NCBI GenBank assembly: GCA_035761265.1
Contig: DASTRL010000250.1
Span: forward strand, 4,166-68,165
Origin: Steroidobacteraceae bacterium
GTDB lineage: Bacteria > Pseudomonadota > Gammaproteobacteria > Steroidobacterales > Steroidobacteraceae
Reading direction: 5' to 3'
DNA length: 64,000 bases
Made by a program: the position numbers and the translations under genes. The notes below the pieces were generated by a model. It had not been told where the DNA came from, did no database searches, and saw nothing but the letters and a program-made list of their open reading frames with translations. This document shows, piece after piece, positions 30,133-50,307 of the stretch; the stretch's first letter is position 1; every line of letters begins with the position of its first letter.

Positions 30133-30209
30133 TGGCGCGCCCGACAGGATTCGAACCTGTGACCTACGGCTTCGGAAACCGTCACTCTATCCAGCTGAGC
30201 TACGGGCGC
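30133..30209 (-). tRNA. tRNA-Arg (anticodon CCG)
   Basis: Hand-folded 77-nt cloverleaf: GCGCCCG acceptor, GCTC/GAGT D stem, ACGGT/GCCGT anticodon stem with loop TTCCGAA, ACAGG/CCTGT T stem with TTCGAAT loop, encoded CCA. Nearly identical to enterobacterial tRNA-Arg(CCG). Confidence 0.95.
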
Positions 30210-33342: not shown

Positions 33343-33455
33343 AAAAAGAAAGCCCCGGTGGTAAACCACCGGGGCCAGACTAACCCGGCACAGGTCTCGT
33401 GAACCGGGCTACCCGCTCAGGGAGGGAAGCGGGGAGCGGTTTTACGCGCTCAGGT
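33343..33455 (-). ncRNA. candidate ~113-nt sRNA (sigma-E-type promoter to intrinsic terminator), syntenic with Spot 42/ErsA position
   Basis: A promoter-like element lies at 33458-33485. The predicted transcript has a hairpin exposing the C/U-rich tract CCCGCTTCCCTCCCT (about 33419-33434). A second hairpin is AGCCCGG...CCGGGTT. The terminator is GCCCCGGTGG-TTTA-CCACCGGGGC followed by TTTCTTTTT (33343-33375). No ORF with an RBS. The ends are predictions only. Confidence 0.45.
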
Positions 33456-43244: not shown

Positions 43245-44330
43245 TCACTCGTTCGCCGCGCGATCCATGGCGCGGGCCTGCGTGAGTCCCACGGACTGGA
43301 TGATGGAATCGCCCAGAGCCGCGCCGGCGGACAGCGCATTGAATGCGGGTACCTTGAGCTGCTCCTGGATGATCTGCACACCCACGGCGTTGTCCGTCGA
43401 CGGACCGGTGACCGCGATGGGCTCGATGCCGTACTTCTGGCGCAGGATGTCCACGCCGCCGTAGGCCGCCACCGGATCGTTGGCGGAGAGCACCACGCCG
43501 GTCATGGCCTTGCGCAGGTCCTGCTGCTCGAGGATGGCATCGACTCCGTAGGTTCCGAGCAATCCGTCGCCGAGCTCGAACACGATGACGTCGGGCTTCT
43601 TGTCGGCAAGCTCGGTGAGCATGGTGCGCGTGAGCGCCGGGCCCACCTTGCGCGTGGTCGAGACAATGCCGAAGTCCGTGAAGATGAGCGTGTTGCGCGC
43701 GCCGGCGTCCTCGAAGGCGAGGATGTCACGACGCAGCGAGACGCCCGTGGCCTTGAAGGCATCGACGACCAGCCCGCGGTGCCGCATGCGCGCGATGATG
43801 GCCGCCGCCGCTGCGGTCTTGCCGGCTTCCATGCAGGTGCCCGCGAGCGCGACCACGGGCACGCGCTGGGTGTCGAGCTTGGCTTCCGGGTCGAACTTGC
43901 GATAGCCGACACGCGCCGGTACGCCGATGCGTTCGCCGAGGTACGGAAAATCCAGCACGCCGCCGATCACGCGGCAGTCGAAGGGCTTGCCCTTGTCGGG
44001 ATTCACCGAGTCGCACACGCCGAGCACGCCGCCGATGTTGAGCATCTGCAGGACGTCGCCGGGCTTGACGCTGCCGGGCACGTGGCCCGAATAGCCGAAC
44101 AGCGCCTTGCGGTGCCCCAGCGCACCGGCAACGATGTCGCCCTTGCCCACCTTGGCCATGCGGCCGCTGGTGAGCTCCAGCGTGTTGTAGGTCGATTTGT
44201 TGGTCAGGATTTCCACGACCACCACCACGCCTTCCTCGGCGGGAATGTTGTCGGTGGCGACGCGCACCTCGTTGCCGAGACCGCAGGCCTGCGTGACCGA
44301 CGCGATCTTGTCGACGACTACCGTTCTCAT
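43245..44330 (-). CDS. uncharacterised two-domain protein with deviant Walker A (GT-x4-GKT), embedded in arg operon
   Basis: 361 aa from ATG 44330 (ATGA overlap with the argG stop). A beta-rich N-terminal half is followed by VVALAGTCMEAGKT and an alpha/beta C-terminal half. Composition and operon context favour this strand over the antisense track ORF 43197-44348. Confidence 0.8.
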   Translation of the reverse strand: MRTVVVDKIASVTQACGLGNEVRVATDNIPAEEGVVVVVEILTNKSTYNTLELTSGRMAKVGKGDIVAGALGHRKALFGYSGHVPGSVKPGDVLQMLNIGGVLGVCDSVNPDKGKPFDCRVIGGVLDFPYLGERIGVPARVGYRKFDPEAKLDTQRVPVVALAGTCMEAGKTAAAAAIIARMRHRGLVVDAFKATGVSLRRDILAFEDAGARNTLIFTDFGIVSTTRKVGPALTRTMLTELADKKPDVIVFELGDGLLGTYGVDAILEQQDLRKAMTGVVLSANDPVAAYGGVDILRQKYGIEPIAVTGPSTDNAVGVQIIQEQLKVPAFNALSAGAALGDSIIQSVGLTQARAMDRAANE

Positions 44331-45556
44331 TTGGCCGTACTCATCTGATTTCCTCCCGCCCGCGCATGGAACATGCCGGTGAGCGAGACGATCTTGGAGA
44401 ACCCGAGCGCATCCTGCGGCGACCACTCGCCCGCTGCCTCGCCGTACACGCCGCGCGACACCGCCATCAGCGAATGCGGCGACTCCACGCCCTCGACGAA
44501 CAAACTACCCGGGCGGAACAGCAGGTGGACCTTGCCCGTGACGCGCTCCTGCGATGACAGGAACAAGGCCTCGATGTCGCGGCACACCGGATCCAGCAAC
44601 TGTCCCTCGTGTACCCAGTCGCCATAGGGCCCCGCGAGCGATTCCTTGATGCGCTGCTGGCGTGGCGTGAGAACGAGCTTCTCGAGCTCGCGGTGCGCGG
44701 TGAGCAGCGTCTCGGCCGCCGGCGCCTCGAACGCGACGCGTCCCTTGGTGCCGATGATGGTGTCGCCGAGATGGATGCCGCGGCCGATGCCGAACGGCGC
44801 GCCCAGCGCCTCGAGCTGCTCGACCACGTCCACGGCGGACATCGTCCTGCCGTCGATGCCGACCGGGCGGCCTTTCTCGAAATGAATCGTGTGCTTGGCC
44901 GGCGCGCGCGGATTCGTGAAGGCGTCCTTCGACAGCACCCAGGCGTGATCGGGAATGCTGCCCTCCGAGGTCAGCGTCTCCTTGCCACCGATGGTCACGC
45001 CCCACAGGCCGCGATTGATTGAATACGCGGCGCCGAACGGCGGCACGGGCAGCTGGCGCGACTGCAGGTAGTCGAGCTCTTCCTGGCGCTTGAACGCCTT
45101 GTCGCGCACCGGCGCGATCACCTCGAGCTCGGGCGCGAGCGTGCGCAGCGCGACTTCGAAGCGCACCTGGTCGTTGCCGGCGGCCGTGCAGCCGTGCGCG
45201 ATGGAGTTCGTGCCGAGCTTGCGCGCCATCAGCGCGATGGTCTGCGCCTGCATGACGCGCTCGGCGCCGACGCACAGCGGGTAGAGCTGGCCGCGGCGCA
45301 CGTTGCCCATCACCAGGAAGCGCAGCACCTGCTCGAAATAGTCGGCGCGCGCGTCCACCTGGTGGTGCTGCACCGCGCCGAGCGCCAGCGCGCGCTCGCG
45401 CAGCGTCTTTGCACCCGCGGCGTCGATGCCGCCGGTGTCGACGGTCACGGTGATGATGGGGCGGCCATAGGTCTCCTTGAGCCAGGGCACCAGGAAGGAG
45501 GTGTCGAGGCCGCCGGAGTAGGCGAGGACGATGGGTGTTTTCTCGGCTGGGGACAT
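44327..45556 (-). CDS. argG: argininosuccinate synthase
   Basis: 409 aa with the N-terminal AYSGGLDTS ATP-PPase motif and full-length ArgG similarity. Confidence 0.96.
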   Translation of the reverse strand: MSPAEKTPIVLAYSGGLDTSFLVPWLKETYGRPIITVTVDTGGIDAAGAKTLRERALALGAVQHHQVDARADYFEQVLRFLVMGNVRRGQLYPLCVGAERVMQAQTIALMARKLGTNSIAHGCTAAGNDQVRFEVALRTLAPELEVIAPVRDKAFKRQEELDYLQSRQLPVPPFGAAYSINRGLWGVTIGGKETLTSEGSIPDHAWVLSKDAFTNPRAPAKHTIHFEKGRPVGIDGRTMSAVDVVEQLEALGAPFGIGRGIHLGDTIIGTKGRVAFEAPAAETLLTAHRELEKLVLTPRQQRIKESLAGPYGDWVHEGQLLDPVCRDIEALFLSSQERVTGKVHLLFRPGSLFVEGVESPHSLMAVSRGVYGEAAGEWSPQDALGFSKIVSLTGMFHARAGGNQMSTAK

Positions 45557-46128: not shown

Positions 46129-46434
46129 TCAGCCTTCGGGACGGAGCGGATTCGTCGCCGCGTCGCCCACCACCGTGGTCCAGGCGCGCACCGTCCACTT
46201 CGTGACCAGTCCGCCTTTCACGTACGGGTCTTCCGCGGCAAAGCGCTCGACGACTGCTTTGTCGCTCGCCGAAAACCACAGTACGCCACCGTCGACCGGA
46301 TCGGCGAACGCACCGGCGAGCATCAGCTCGCCGCGCGCGTGCGCCGCCCAGGCATGTCTTAGATGCGGTCCACGAAACTGCGCGCGGCGCTCGAGGACGT
46401 CGGGAACATATGTATAGAAGAGCAGAAAATGCAC
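46129..46434 (-). CDS. YciI family protein
   Basis: 101 aa from GTG 46434: MHFLLFYTYVPDVLERRAQFRGPHL...GAFADP is the typical YciI-like fold signature. Confidence 0.8.
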   Translation of the reverse strand: MHFLLFYTYVPDVLERRAQFRGPHLRHAWAAHARGELMLAGAFADPVDGGVLWFSASDKAVVERFAAEDPYVKGGLVTKWTVRAWTTVVGDAATNPLRPEG

Positions 46435-46480: not shown

Positions 46481-47617
46481 ATGCTTCGTGTTGTGCGCGC
46501 CGGTTTCGTGATCCCGACTCTGCTGCTGGCACTGAGCTTCGGTGAGAGCGCGTTCGCGCAGGTCGGTGAGCCTGCCGGATCCGCTGCTTCGGCCGAAGAT
46601 GCGGTCGCCAGGCACGTGTTCCCGTATCTCGCGCCGGCCAACGTGCCCAGGTTCCCGCGCCCGCCACGTCGCTACACGCCGCCGGACGGATTCGCCGGCC
46701 ACAAATGGGGCGACCTCCGTTCCACGTTTACCCGGCTTCCCGAGCAGCCGGCCGCCGTCCGCGCCGCCTGGACTCACGGCAAGCGGGTCGGAAACGAAGT
46801 GGTTTGCACCGGCCGGGACGTGCAGGCATGCACGGTCCAGGATTACCTCAACTCACAGCGCACCTGGCTGTTCGAGGGTGACGGCTTCCATGTGCTTTCG
46901 GAGTACTTGATCGAATCGCAGGGCTTCCGATTCCCGCAGAGCGGTGTGCTGCTTCATCCGGTGGTGTACGAGTTTTGCGCCAACTGGCACGGGAAGAGGA
47001 ACAGGGTCCCGGAAAAATTCGAGAAGATGAACCGGCTCTGCGGCATGCGCCTGTTGTTCGAGACCGAAAGTCTCGGGGAACTGCGCAAGCTGCCCGAGGA
47101 CCACGTTACCCAATACGACCTGGTGTTGTCCGAGCTCACCTCCCTGTATGGCAAGCCGGCGAATTTCACCTGGCGCGGCCACGTGACGGTGGAAACCGTC
47201 GCAGGTCCTGCGGTGTTCATGCCCAGCGTGGACCGAAAGTTCAAGACCTGGCGCTGGTGTCCGGCGCCTCCCGACGGGCTCATGACCCGTTGCGAAGCCA
47301 GCATCGTGCTGTCGATCGATCCCGACGTCGGTCGAGGCATCGTGCTGTTCTCGACACCGGCGATGTGGCAGTACGCGTTCGCCCGCGAAAGCAGCGAGGA
47401 TGCGGCGCCCGATGCGCTGTACACGTTGATGCACGCGCTTTCCTTCAAACATCGCTATGCCCTGGCGAAGCGCAAGGAAGCGGCCTGGAAGGCGGCCGAG
47501 GCGAAAAAGGCGAAGCGCGAGAAAGCCGAAGAACCGGGCTTGCCCGATGCCAAGTCTGCCGAAGCACCTGGCCAATCGAACTCCGTTTCAACCAGCAAGC
47601 AGGGGTCGATGCCGTGA
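46481..47617 (+). CDS. secreted Cys-rich protein, paralog 1 of tandem triplet (unknown family)
   Basis: It has a signal peptide. It shares blocks with the next two genes: Y-PP-GF-GH-WGDLR, FHVLSEY, HPVVYEFCANW, LCGMRLLF, TWRWCP, C-ASIVLS-DP. Lys/Ala/Glu-rich tail. Confidence 0.85.
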   Translation: MLRVVRAGFVIPTLLLALSFGESAFAQVGEPAGSAASAEDAVARHVFPYLAPANVPRFPRPPRRYTPPDGFAGHKWGDLRSTFTRLPEQPAAVRAAWTHGKRVGNEVVCTGRDVQACTVQDYLNSQRTWLFEGDGFHVLSEYLIESQGFRFPQSGVLLHPVVYEFCANWHGKRNRVPEKFEKMNRLCGMRLLFETESLGELRKLPEDHVTQYDLVLSELTSLYGKPANFTWRGHVTVETVAGPAVFMPSVDRKFKTWRWCPAPPDGLMTRCEASIVLSIDPDVGRGIVLFSTPAMWQYAFARESSEDAAPDALYTLMHALSFKHRYALAKRKEAAWKAAEAKKAKREKAEEPGLPDAKSAEAPGQSNSVSTSKQGSMP

Positions 47618-48771
47618 GAGTTCCGGTTTGCTTGTTGTGCGCGGCTGCTGTCGCAGGTGGGTCACCGCTGGTCCAGGGGCAGAGTGCACCGGCGGCCGAT
47701 GCCACGACGGCGCCCCCGGCCATTGCGGCGGAAGCGGTGCAATACCTGCCGCCTGCCGCGGCGCCCAGGCTCTCGCCGCCGCCAGCAAACTACTCGCCGC
47801 CCGTCGGCTTCGGTGGCCATGCCTGGGGCGACCTGCGCAAGGACTTCCAACAGCTGCCTGCTGAGGCCGCGAGCGTCACGGCCGCCTGGTCGCGCAGCGA
47901 AAAGGGCACGTCGGGTCTGCACTGCACGGGCAGCGGCAGGGCGGTGGTCTCCATCCCGCTGGACGCAGGTCCGATCGGCAGCGCCATCGGCGGCGGCGCG
48001 GCCAATGGTGTCGCCGGATGCAGCATGGCCGACGTCGCCAACAGCATGCGGCCGACGCTCGCGACTGCCGACTTCCACGTGCTTTCCGAATACAGCATCG
48101 CCGGGCAGGGTTTCCGCATGTCAGGCGTCGTGCTTTTCCCGGTGGTCTACGAGTTCTGTGCCCGATGGGAAAAGGGCAAAAGTGAGGTCCCGGCGAATTT
48201 CGAAGAGATCAACCGGTATTGCGGCATGCGCCTGCTATTCCCGATGGAATCACCTTCACAGTTGGCGAGCCTGCCGCCGGATCACGTCTCGCGTTTCGAT
48301 CTCGTGCTGAACGAGCTCGTGTCGCGCTACGGCAATCCTGACGATGCGGTCAGGGGCGGGCGGGACTCCGTGATCGAGGCCGTGACGCCGGGCGTGCCAC
48401 GTCGCGATCGCGATTTGCGCACCTGGCGTTGGTGTCCGATGTCGGCCCGGAAGAAGCAGCCTTCCTGCCCGGTCAGCATCGTGCTCGCCGCGGACCCCAA
48501 CGCGGCGCGCGGCATCGTGATCTTCGCGACGCCCGCGTTGTGGCGTTTCGCCGAAGCGCGCGAGACTGGTCTCGGCATGCCCGATGCGCTCTACACCTTG
48601 TTGCAGGGACTGCCGATCCCGGAACGCGAGGAGCAACGACAGCTCAAGCTCGCGGAAGCGAGCGCGGAGCAGGTCCGTGCGGCGGCGGCGGAGGCCAGTC
48701 GCAAGAGGCCCACGAAGACGGAGGTCAGCACGCCCAGGACCGTCTACGATATCGCGATCAACGAAGAGTGA
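47614..48771 (+). CDS. secreted Cys-rich protein, paralog 2 of tandem triplet
   Basis: The GTG start overlaps the paralog 1 stop (GTGA). Same conserved blocks, with a Gly/Ala-rich insertion in the N-terminal third. Confidence 0.82.
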   Translation: MRVPVCLLCAAAVAGGSPLVQGQSAPAADATTAPPAIAAEAVQYLPPAAAPRLSPPPANYSPPVGFGGHAWGDLRKDFQQLPAEAASVTAAWSRSEKGTSGLHCTGSGRAVVSIPLDAGPIGSAIGGGAANGVAGCSMADVANSMRPTLATADFHVLSEYSIAGQGFRMSGVVLFPVVYEFCARWEKGKSEVPANFEEINRYCGMRLLFPMESPSQLASLPPDHVSRFDLVLNELVSRYGNPDDAVRGGRDSVIEAVTPGVPRRDRDLRTWRWCPMSARKKQPSCPVSIVLAADPNAARGIVIFATPALWRFAEARETGLGMPDALYTLLQGLPIPEREEQRQLKLAEASAEQVRAAAAEASRKRPTKTEVSTPRTVYDIAINEE

Positions 48772-48792
48772 GACCGCCGTACCGTGCGCACG

Positions 48793-49665
48793 ATGAGACG
48801 TTACCTGATTTGTCTGATGCTCACCCTCACCGTCGCGAATGCTTCCGACGGGGGCAAGGGCGTGAAATACGTGCCACCCGAGGGATTCGCGGGTCACAAG
48901 TGGGGCGACCTGCGCGGCAGTTTCGACCGCCTTCCCGAGCAGCCGATCGGCGTCGCGGCAGCCTGGATGCAGCAGCAGCAGAAACAGACCTCGTTCTCCT
49001 GCGTGCCCAACACGCAGGTGGGCGCGCAGGTCAGCGGCGCCATCGACGGCTGCAATTTCCAGGAGACGCTGCTGAGGCTGCGCAGCGAATTCCAGGGCGG
49101 CGGCACCTATGTGTTGTCCGAGTACGCCATCGAGGGCCAGGCGTTCCGCTTCGGCGACGAAGCCAGCGGCATCGTGCTGCATCCGGTGGTCTACCAGTTC
49201 TGCGCGAACTGGAATGGCAGCCGCAAGCGCGGCGCCCCGCTGAACTTCGATGAGCTCAACAAGTTCTGCGGCGTGAAATTCATGTTCCAGAGCGAGACGC
49301 GCCAGCAGCTGCGCAAACTACCCGCGGATCACGAGACCACCTATGACCGCGTGCTCGAAAAGCTGCTCGCGAAATATGGTCGCCCGAAGGGCTTCCTGCG
49401 CCGCGGCCAGGTGATCATCGAGACGCTCGAGGGCGACTCGAGCGATCCGGCCGATCGCAAGTTCAGCATCTGGCGCTGGTGTCCGGCCACCGGCACCGGA
49501 CTGCGCACCGACTGCACCGCCAGCGTGATCCTGACCCTGGACCCGGCGACCGGCGTGGGCACGGTGCTGTACTCGACGCCGCTGCTGTGGGAGTACGCGT
49601 TCGCGCGCGAGAACTACGGGTTCAAGGGTGACCCGCTGTTCCGCATGCTGCATGCGCGGAACTGA
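48793..49665 (+). CDS. secreted Cys-rich protein, paralog 3 of tandem triplet
   Basis: ATG 48793 (or GTG 48784). Signal peptide MRRYLICLMLTLTVANA, the same conserved blocks and no charged tail. Confidence 0.85.
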   Translation: MRRYLICLMLTLTVANASDGGKGVKYVPPEGFAGHKWGDLRGSFDRLPEQPIGVAAAWMQQQQKQTSFSCVPNTQVGAQVSGAIDGCNFQETLLRLRSEFQGGGTYVLSEYAIEGQAFRFGDEASGIVLHPVVYQFCANWNGSRKRGAPLNFDELNKFCGVKFMFQSETRQQLRKLPADHETTYDRVLEKLLAKYGRPKGFLRRGQVIIETLEGDSSDPADRKFSIWRWCPATGTGLRTDCTASVILTLDPATGVGTVLYSTPLLWEYAFARENYGFKGDPLFRMLHARN

Positions 49666-50307
49666 CTAGCGCGCGTGGCGGAACGTCAGGTTGTAGCGGA
49701 AGCCTCCGGTCACCCGGTGCACGCCGGGCTTGAGCGGGCGCACCGCGTGATACACCAGGCGTGACGGTCCGCCCCAGACCAGCACGTCGCCATCGGCGAG
49801 CGGCACCGTCCTTCCCTTGCCGCCGCGCGTGAGCCCGTAGAACGCGAAGCTCGCGGGCAGTCCCATCGACACCGAGACGATGGGCTGCGCGTAGTTCTGC
49901 TCATCCGCGTCACGGTGCGCCGTGAGCCGGCTTCCCGGCGAGTAGCGATTCACGAGACAGGCATCCGGCGCGAAATCGCGGAAGCCACCGAGCGCGGCCG
50001 CGGACAGCGCCAGCTCGAGAAATTCGCCAGGCATGGGTGGCCATGCCCGCCCGGTCAGCGGATCGCGTGCATCGTAACGATATCCGCTGCGCTCGCTGAC
50101 CCAGCCCACGGGGCCGCAATTCGTCATGGCCACCGACATCGTCTGGCCGCCGGGTGTCACCAGATGCCGGAAGGGCGAGCTCTCCGCCACGCGCTCCACC
50201 AGCGGCATCAGGCGCGCCGAATCCGCGAAGCCGCGCAACAGCGTGATGCCAGGCCCGAGGGAGGCACCTGCGCCCGCACCGCGCGCAAACAAATCGAGCG
50301 TGCTCAT
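49666..50307 (-). CDS. alkB: alpha-ketoglutarate/Fe(II)-dependent dioxygenase AlkB
   Basis: 213 aa with the HRDADE (HxD) motif, a distal His (YHAV) and RYNLTFR. The start overlaps the tamB stop (ATGA). Confidence 0.92.
   Translation of the reverse strand: MSTLDLFARGAGAGASLGPGITLLRGFADSARLMPLVERVAESSPFRHLVTPGGQTMSVAMTNCGPVGWVSERSGYRYDARDPLTGRAWPPMPGEFLELALSAAALGGFRDFAPDACLVNRYSPGSRLTAHRDADEQNYAQPIVSVSMGLPASFAFYGLTRGGKGRTVPLADGDVLVWGGPSRLVYHAVRPLKPGVHRVTGGFRYNLTFRHAR

Follow-up and report, generated by a model that had tools for sequence, protein, structure and literature searches.

A tandem array of paralogs encoding a putatively exported, disulfide-bonded protein family in soil Steroidobacteraceae

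Introduction

What do three consecutive, mutually similar genes for cysteine-rich proteins encode when none of them resembles a named family? This question is raised by positions 46481-49665 of a 64,000-nucleotide (nt) stretch of DNA from a Steroidobacteraceae bacterium (contig DASTRL010000250.1, positions 4,166 to 68,165 of the forward strand; hereafter the window, meaning the whole stretch that was analysed). A first reading of the sequence (the original prediction) had described the locus as a triplicated secreted protein with no recognisable domain, expanded in one lineage under diversifying duplication and perhaps serving as an adhesin, effector, inhibitor or binding module. Here we compare the three genes with their homologs in genomes and metagenomes, model the structure of one product and reconstruct the history of the copies. 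We favour, with moderate confidence, the reading that the proteins are exported, disulfide-bonded, non-enzymatic binding or structural modules of the cell envelope, and that the copies are ancient paralogs of an undescribed family.

Results

Three paralogs of one family

The list of open reading frames (ORFs), the gene junctions and a three-way alignment bore out the basic description of the locus: three paralogous genes on the same strand (Table 1), each with a signal-peptide-like N-terminus, the first two overlapping by 4 nt in the sequence GTGA, in which the GTG start of gene 2 lies on the TGA stop of gene 1. The three proteins are 36-48% identical to one another (gene 2 44% and gene 3 47% to gene 1) and share 91 invariant alignment columns, and tblastn comparison of copy against copy gave E values of 1e-55 to 1e-79, far beyond chance. 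Every motif listed in the original prediction proved to be present and collinear in all three proteins. The Gly/Ala-rich insert of gene 2 and the Lys/Ala/Glu tails of genes 1 and 2 were found in the alignment at defined residue positions, and each mature protein has exactly the six conserved Cys.

The gap between genes 2 and 3 is 12 nt, and together with the 4-nt overlap it indicates that the three genes are probably co-transcribed; the overlap itself suggests that genes 1 and 2 may be translationally coupled. An in-frame ATG is also present in gene 3 at 48793. A consensus scan of the locus found no promoter-like site, and the single terminator-like site that it gave, on the minus strand near the start of the YCII-family gene, is within chance expectation. 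Gene 3 and the convergent alkB-like gene meet stop to stop at 49663-49668, leaving no intergenic space for a terminator. The GC content of the family genes (0.64-0.67) matches that of the genome (0.665). In one true metatranscriptome, a 182-nt contig is identical to 48981-49162 within gene 3, which is weak evidence that gene 3 is transcribed.

A family without a match in curated resources

The statement that the proteins have no recognisable domain was upheld. Against Pfam, the best matches of genes 1-3 had E values of 0.054 and 0.3, far below the cut-offs, and against NCBIfam the best E value was 0.057, again under threshold, so that the check for a confident Pfam or TIGR match came out negative. 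When 57 diverse family members were compared with Pfam, PHROGs and PADLOC, no match was obtained at E <= 0.01, and a search of the family profiles against PDB sequences with hmmsearch gave nothing better than E 0.46. A full-text literature search on hypothetical signal-peptide proteins of Steroidobacteraceae returned nothing relevant. By these comparisons the family is undescribed and present in no curated resource.

An AlphaFold (AF2) model of gene 3, built from the alignment of the 57 diverse members, reached a mean predicted local distance difference test score (pLDDT) of 87.9 and a predicted template modelling score (pTM) of 0.81. The modelled protein forms one alpha/beta domain, in which four helices accompany long antiparallel strands. 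A first model from a 17-sequence alignment had been poor (pLDDT 62.7), and its Foldseek matches (serpins, prenyltransferases) were discarded. Foldseek comparison of the better model with the PDB gave a best E value of 0.34 and template modelling (TM) scores of at most 0.15, and comparison of the same model with BFVD gave a best E value of 8e-3 (TM 0.21). The modelled fold is thus probably new to curated resources. Two further candidates were rejected. An internal duplication was sought by aligning the N-terminal with the C-terminal half in hhalign, which returned only an eight-residue echo (KYVPPEGF/KYGRPKGF) at a probability of 0.3%. For a BamE-like domain, hhalign of the family profile against Escherichia coli BamE gave a probability of 0.5%, and the SmpA_OmlA Pfam model was unmatched.

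In size, the family is small. In a collection of 5.8 billion proteins, gene 3 has 550 homologs at E <= 1e-3, all of them nameless or called 'hypothetical protein', and the named ones all come from Steroidobacteraceae metagenome-assembled genomes (MAGs). When 1.84 billion cluster representatives were searched exhaustively with a HMMER profile, only 126 matched, of which 46 scored below 1e-30. The distant members come solely from unnamed metagenome contigs, and many are extended at the C-terminus by a segment that contains two further Cys. A phage or plasmid origin was rejected, as no homolog turned up by tblastn among 72,556 plasmids and 50,697 phage records, the family patterns were absent from IMG/VR contigs, and PHROGs gave no match.

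Two of the distant contexts are described here as observations in their own right. At locus L032 (8820-11359), two distant members of 394 and 452 aa stand in tandem with a 4-nt overlap, surrounded by many short unannotated ORFs and by ribonucleotide reductase, HTH_31 and DUF4942 genes, a setting reminiscent of a phage or mobile element; P0204, P0213, P0235 and P0240 share with the 452-aa protein an additional domain at the C-terminus. At L034, a distant member lies near two integrase genes.

Export signals and cysteine pairing

All three N-termini contain a strongly hydrophobic window after basic residues, the best 11-residue Kyte-Doolittle windows scoring 2.3-2.6. Signal peptides were judged heuristically, by such windows and by small-x-small sites, and cleavage sites of the A-x-A type were recognised in gene 1 (AFA|Q) and gene 3 (ANA|S). 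Among homologs, 114 of 120 close ones and 45 of 54 distant ones likewise have a hydrophobic window at the N-terminus. The lipobox [LVI][ASTVI][GAS]C was not found at the end of the signal peptide in genes 1-3; genuine lipoboxes (LAGC, LTAC and ILGC among them) occur only in some distant members. From these features we infer that the proteins are exported to the cell envelope. The lipoprotein signals and hydrophobic N-termini point to an envelope location rather than to release from the cell.

This bears directly on the proposal that the proteins are adhesins or effectors secreted from the cell. The signal peptides and the charged tails of genes 1 and 2 would suit such proteins, but the lipoprotein signals of several distant members indicate anchoring in the envelope, no dedicated secretion system, toxin or target-related genes lie nearby, the domain is small, globular and free of repeats, and the conserved housekeeping synteny described below is unlike that of typical effectors. 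The adhesin or effector role raised in the original prediction therefore found no support, and we consider it very unlikely.

The six Cys columns are conserved at 95-98% among the 57 diverse members. In nearly all members the mature protein has an even number of Cys (6, 8, 4 or 10), and where Cys are missing they are mostly missing in pairs: the first and second in P0136 and P0163, the third and fourth in P0203, and the fifth and sixth in P0212. Pairwise loss and even counts together argue for three sequential disulfides, which would link Cys1-Cys2, Cys3-Cys4 and Cys5-Cys6. The earlier suggestion of a disulfide-stabilised extracytoplasmic protein is thereby strengthened, in that export-type sequence features go together with six Cys that behave as three disulfides.

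Besides the six Cys (C73, C90, C140, C162, C233 and C244 in gene 3 numbering), the positions conserved at 90% or more in the 57 members are P32, W40, G163, L194, G199, P201, W232, G259 and A272. No typical catalytic residue is among them. Since only Cys, Trp, Gly, Pro, Leu and Ala are conserved to this degree, without a catalytic constellation, a binding or structural role is most likely, and the absence of any enzyme family matched by sequence or fold is in line with it. We nevertheless weighed the alternative of a new type of enzyme that acts on an envelope substrate (peptidoglycan, polysaccharide or lipid) through Glu113 and conserved Arg, Tyr and Trp. Among polar residues, conservation is indeed highest at Glu113 (89%), Arg165 (86%) and Arg231 (82%); Tyr114 (81%), Arg275, Tyr29, Tyr137, Tyr187, Trp40 and Trp232 are conserved as well, and single-carboxylate mechanisms exist in some glycan-cleaving enzymes. 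However, Glu113 is replaced in about 11% of members, and we regard an enzymatic function as distinctly improbable.

The chromosomal slot and the history of the paralogs

To the left of gene 1 lies a divergent YCII-family gene and to the right of gene 3 a convergent gene for an AlkB-like 2-oxoglutarate (2OG)-Fe(II) oxygenase, which together border a slot in the chromosome. Beyond the alkB-like gene are tamB and tamA (identified by the Pfam families TamB and Omp85/POTRA_TamA), and the neighbours in the window comprise argD/argC/argG/argR, YCII, alkB, tamB/tamA, TANGO2 and NUDIX genes. The window annotation has no secretion or toxin genes near the locus, and the neighbourhood (arginine biosynthesis, the translocation and assembly module, NUDIX and TANGO2) offers no functional partner.

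Scanning one genome per GTDB species yielded 29 loci, all in MAGs and labelled Steroidobacteraceae, Pseudomonadota or uncultured proteobacterium, except for one contig binned as Ramlibacter. The latter (L022, NZ_DASSVG010000311.1; 2.7 kb) carries a g1-type and a g3-type gene, that is, relatives of genes 1 and 3; its assignment to the Betaproteobacteria is probably wrong, as the alkB of the contig is 88% identical to that of the window. The order seen in the window, with argG-argR-YCII on the minus strand, family gene or genes on the plus strand and alkB-tamB on the minus strand, recurs with both flanks present in 26 of the 29 loci, and in 28 when the short contigs L022 and L024 are included; the metagenome contig L036 has it as well. 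The number of family genes in the slot varies from one to three, as the check on copy number among related strains revealed: 21 loci have a single copy, four have two (L002, L012, L016 and L022), and L011 and the window have three.

In a neighbour-joining tree, a g3-type clade is separated from a sister clade of g1-type and g2-type proteins. The g3-type clade contains gene 3 of the window, the single copies of most loci and additional, independent copies in L011, L012 and L016; L026 deviates in that its sole slot copy is g1-type. Members of the g1 type are gene 1 of the window, L002, L022, L026, P0122 and P0126, with a further ortholog in L036, and g2-type orthologs are rare (P0257, 98%; P0258, 78%, in L036; P0125). 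The contig L036 has the same g1-g2-g3 layout at 74-86% amino-acid identity, with the overlap written ATGA because gene 2 starts with ATG. In L004 (2228-2407), a 63-codon relic of a g1-type 3' end (SSLDAQPDQLFTLMHALQPKQRELFRQ...) stands right after YCII in a genome whose only other copy is g3-type, which argues that gene 1 was lost there by deletion.

Taken together, the tree, the L036 trio and the L004 relic imply that the apparent triplication is no recent burst but a group of old paralogs whose number has changed by gain and loss. Gene 3 is, across the loci compared, the near-universal syntenic core copy of this soil Steroidobacteraceae clade, and genes 1 and 2 appear as accessory paralogs of an older sister branch retained in only some lineages. 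Of the earlier notion of a lineage-specific expansion under diversifying duplication, the paralogy stands; the expansion gives way to three old subfamilies, and the diversification to the purifying selection described below.

In several relatives the slot also holds genes foreign to the family. They lie between YCII and the family gene in L003, L005, L006, L009, L012, L020 and L028, and between the family genes and alkB in L016. Among their products are a protein of about 400 aa starting with MGIFKWRGR that has no assigned function, a 2539-aa protein, a protein of about 470 aa that is lipase-like by eye only, and a possible cysteine peptidase (DGDIIFHTS...YCSELVW), which from the motif alone we take to recall the YiiX/NlpC-P60 type. 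These unrelated genes mark the slot as a hotspot for changes in gene content.

Selection and gene integrity

We compared the window with L036 by the ratio of nonsynonymous to synonymous substitution rates (dN/dS), which was 0.26 for gene 1, 0.28 for gene 2 and 0.16 for gene 3; for the neighbouring genes it was 0.04 (argR), 0.11 (argG), 0.13 (tamB), 0.15 (YCII) and 0.16 (alkB). Other ortholog pairs of the family gave 0.18-0.30, and for gene 3 the values range from 0.16 to 0.30. Ortholog values of 0.16-0.28 imply purifying selection on all three genes, with somewhat weaker constraint on genes 1 and 2. Between the three window copies dN/dS is 0.41-0.62, an unreliable range because dS is about 1 or more and hence saturated, and for this reason it was not used as a measure of diversifying selection. 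The proposed diversifying selection finds no footing in the ortholog comparisons.

These data also speak to the possibility that at least one copy is a pseudogene or an artefact of annotation in a GC-rich genome. Such genomes yield many spurious long ORFs, and two kinds of irregularity were seen. In L027 (10001-10871) and L029 (10001-10861), the g3-type gene is split over two and four reading frames, respectively, through either real pseudogenisation or indel errors of assembly. In addition, contigs were examined from four soil metagenomes, and in all of them codons 97-99 of gene 2 (47903-47908) deviate from the window through a 1-nt deletion (47903) and a 1-nt insertion (47907/47908); the compensated frameshift alters about two codons, the frame is restored either way, and the difference reflects either true local variation or a minor error in the assembly of the window. 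Against this, all three genes are intact in the window, their orthologs are intact with the low dN/dS ratios given above, start positions and signal peptides are conserved, and there are hundreds of intact homologs. The pseudogene reading, which we hold to be extremely improbable, is on this comparative evidence essentially refuted.

Several soil metagenomes contain the locus as a contiguous stretch at about 99% identity. In run X1, one contig connects 46345 (in YCII) directly with 47865 (in gene 2), skipping 1519 bases; with only 21 letters on the shorter side, this join may reflect a chimeric assembly and not a variant from which gene 1 has been deleted.

A further alternative draws on several of these results at once, namely that the proteins are periplasmic inhibitors or immunity proteins that neutralise envelope-targeting hydrolases or toxins (lysozyme-like enzymes, or effectors of type VI or type IV secretion systems, T6SS and T4SS), in which case tandem paralogs would broaden the range of toxins as in orphan-immunity arrays. 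The proteins look exported, disulfide-stabilised and non-catalytic; copy number shifts by tandem duplication and loss; the family genes evolve faster than the neighbouring housekeeping genes; and some distant members occur in tandem pairs or beside integrases and mobile-element-like regions. However, neither the window nor its relatives have an effector, T6SS or T4SS gene near the locus, and in place of a cognate toxin, a secretion system or an orphan-immunity island the same housekeeping neighbours recur in at least 26 relatives. None of the 57 members has a Pfam match to Ivy, MliC/PliC, PliG or other inhibitor families, Ivy, MliC/PliC and PliG are absent from the top 50 Foldseek matches in the PDB, and the Foldseek match to Smlt3025 has a probability of only 0.03 (TM 0.10). 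PADLOC gave no match, so that a defence system was rejected as well. Moreover, the g3-type gene is stable, syntenic, under purifying selection and mostly single-copy, which is untypical of arms-race genes. We therefore judge an inhibitor or immunity function to be rather unlikely.

Other features of the window

The features of the three genes and of the borders of the slot are collected in Table 1. Elsewhere in the window, an ORF of up to 393 aa (361 aa as called in L036) is located between argC and argG at 43245-44426 on the minus strand; it is 86-94% identical in most relatives, has no Pfam domain and belongs to the conserved arginine-biosynthesis cluster. An Rfam match to the Burkholderia anti-hemB small RNA was found at 33344-33435 (minus strand; 58.1 bits, above the gathering score), and a single tRNA-Arg(CCG) at 30133-30209 (minus strand). 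The segment 20001-22000 has a lower GC content (0.595 versus about 0.665).

Table 1 Features of the three family genes and of the slot borders (window coordinates; signal peptides as judged heuristically)
Feature	Window position	Strand	Residues	Details
YCII-family gene, left border of slot	46129..46434	-		divergent from gene 1; Pfam PF03795 and synteny
Gene 1, g1-type paralog	46481..47617	+	378 aa	ATG start
Gene 1 putative signal peptide	46481-46558		1-26	
Gene 1 Pro/Ala-rich linker	46559-46672		27-64	
Gene 1 conserved core	46673-47440		65-320	
Gene 1 Lys/Ala/Glu-rich tail	47441-47614		321-378	
Gene 1 Cys			109, 117, 166, 187, 260, 271	
Gene 2, g2-type paralog	47614..48771	+	385 aa	GTG start
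Gene 2 signal-like N-terminus			1-22	
Gene 2 Pro/Ala linker			23-59	
Gene 2 core			60-333	
Gene 2 Gly/Ala-rich insert	47932-48018		107-135	between Cys1 and Cys2
Gene 2 charged Lys/Ala/Glu-rich tail	48613-48768		334-385	
Gene 2 core Cys			104, 136, 182, 203, 274, 285	
Gene 3, g3-type core paralog	48784..49665	+	293 aa	GTG start
Gene 3 putative signal peptide	48784-48843		1-20	
Gene 3 core			29-293	no linker or tail
Gene 3 core Cys			73, 90, 140, 162, 233, 244	
AlkB-like 2OG-Fe(II) oxygenase gene, right border of slot	49666..50307	-		convergent with gene 3; Pfam PF13532 and synteny

Discussion

In the reading that we favour, each protein would be exported through a Sec-type signal peptide to the periplasm or to a face of the outer membrane, where it would fold as one alpha/beta domain of about 265 aa, oxidised by DsbA to form the three sequential disulfides. 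The role of the domain would then be non-enzymatic, namely to bind a partner or ligand or to serve as a structural module; we infer this from the pattern of conserved residues. In the products of genes 1 and 2, the domain is preceded by a Pro-rich linker and followed by a charged tail that is probably helical.

Several points weigh against this reading. Gene 2 departs further from a canonical signal peptide than the other two genes do, with no clear A-x-A site and with two Cys in the h-region. The fair conservation of Glu113, Arg165 and Arg231 (89%, 86% and 82%) and of several Tyr would leave room for an unconventional active site. The six contexts of distant members have no common neighbour and so lend the proposed function no support from context. 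The RNA evidence consists only of the 182-nt contig and of ambiguous 'GENOMIC RNA-Seq' libraries. Finally, the fold comparison covered the PDB and BFVD, and a remote relationship may have been missed.

A bolder proposal, which we put forward tentatively and consider unlikely, is that the family combines a periplasmic fold and an envelope function that are both new, either as a hetero-oligomeric module in which genes 1 and 2 join the core gene 3, or as a new class of broad-spectrum periplasmic inhibitors that expands by tandem duplication. If true, this would mean a new envelope function conserved in nearly all of a widespread, uncultured clade of soil Steroidobacteraceae. Independently of this proposal, the presence of a g3-type gene in a fixed slot and under purifying selection makes it likely to matter for envelope biology, and Steroidobacteraceae are common soil bacteria in which the locus recurs at about 99% identity in many soil metagenomes. 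The novelty lies in the protein family and probably in its fold, and unannotated families are numerous in metagenomes. The small size of this one, its confident model, its Cys pattern and its natural variation between one and three copies make it tractable for the assignment of structure and function.

Among known systems, the closest in general design are Ivy, MliC/PliC, PliG, Tsi and Smlt3025, small globular domains that are Sec-exported or anchored as lipoproteins; the likeness is one of analogy, not homology. These periplasmic inhibitors and T6SS/T4SS immunity proteins are often disulfide-bonded and non-catalytic, and they sometimes form tandem arrays of paralogs. The Steroidobacteraceae family differs from them in having neither sequence nor fold similarity to them and no cognate effector gene nearby, and, unlike immunity proteins, the g3-type gene has a stable, syntenic place in its lineage and does not belong to an island. 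BamE/SmpA_OmlA and BLIP-like domains share with the family a helix followed by (Y/L)G-x-P and then by beta strands (aa 186-201 of gene 3), as well as the probable location in the envelope; in contrast to them, the family has no Pfam match and no internal repeat, and neither domain is found in the top 50 Foldseek matches in the PDB. Similar in standing are the uncharacterised 'novel families' of metagenomes, as the homologs are hypothetical or nameless and come nearly all from metagenomes or MAGs. It is more tractable than most such families, however, in that its structure is modelled with confidence, its disulfide pattern is defined, its chromosomal slot is fixed and the history of its paralogs has been reconstructed.

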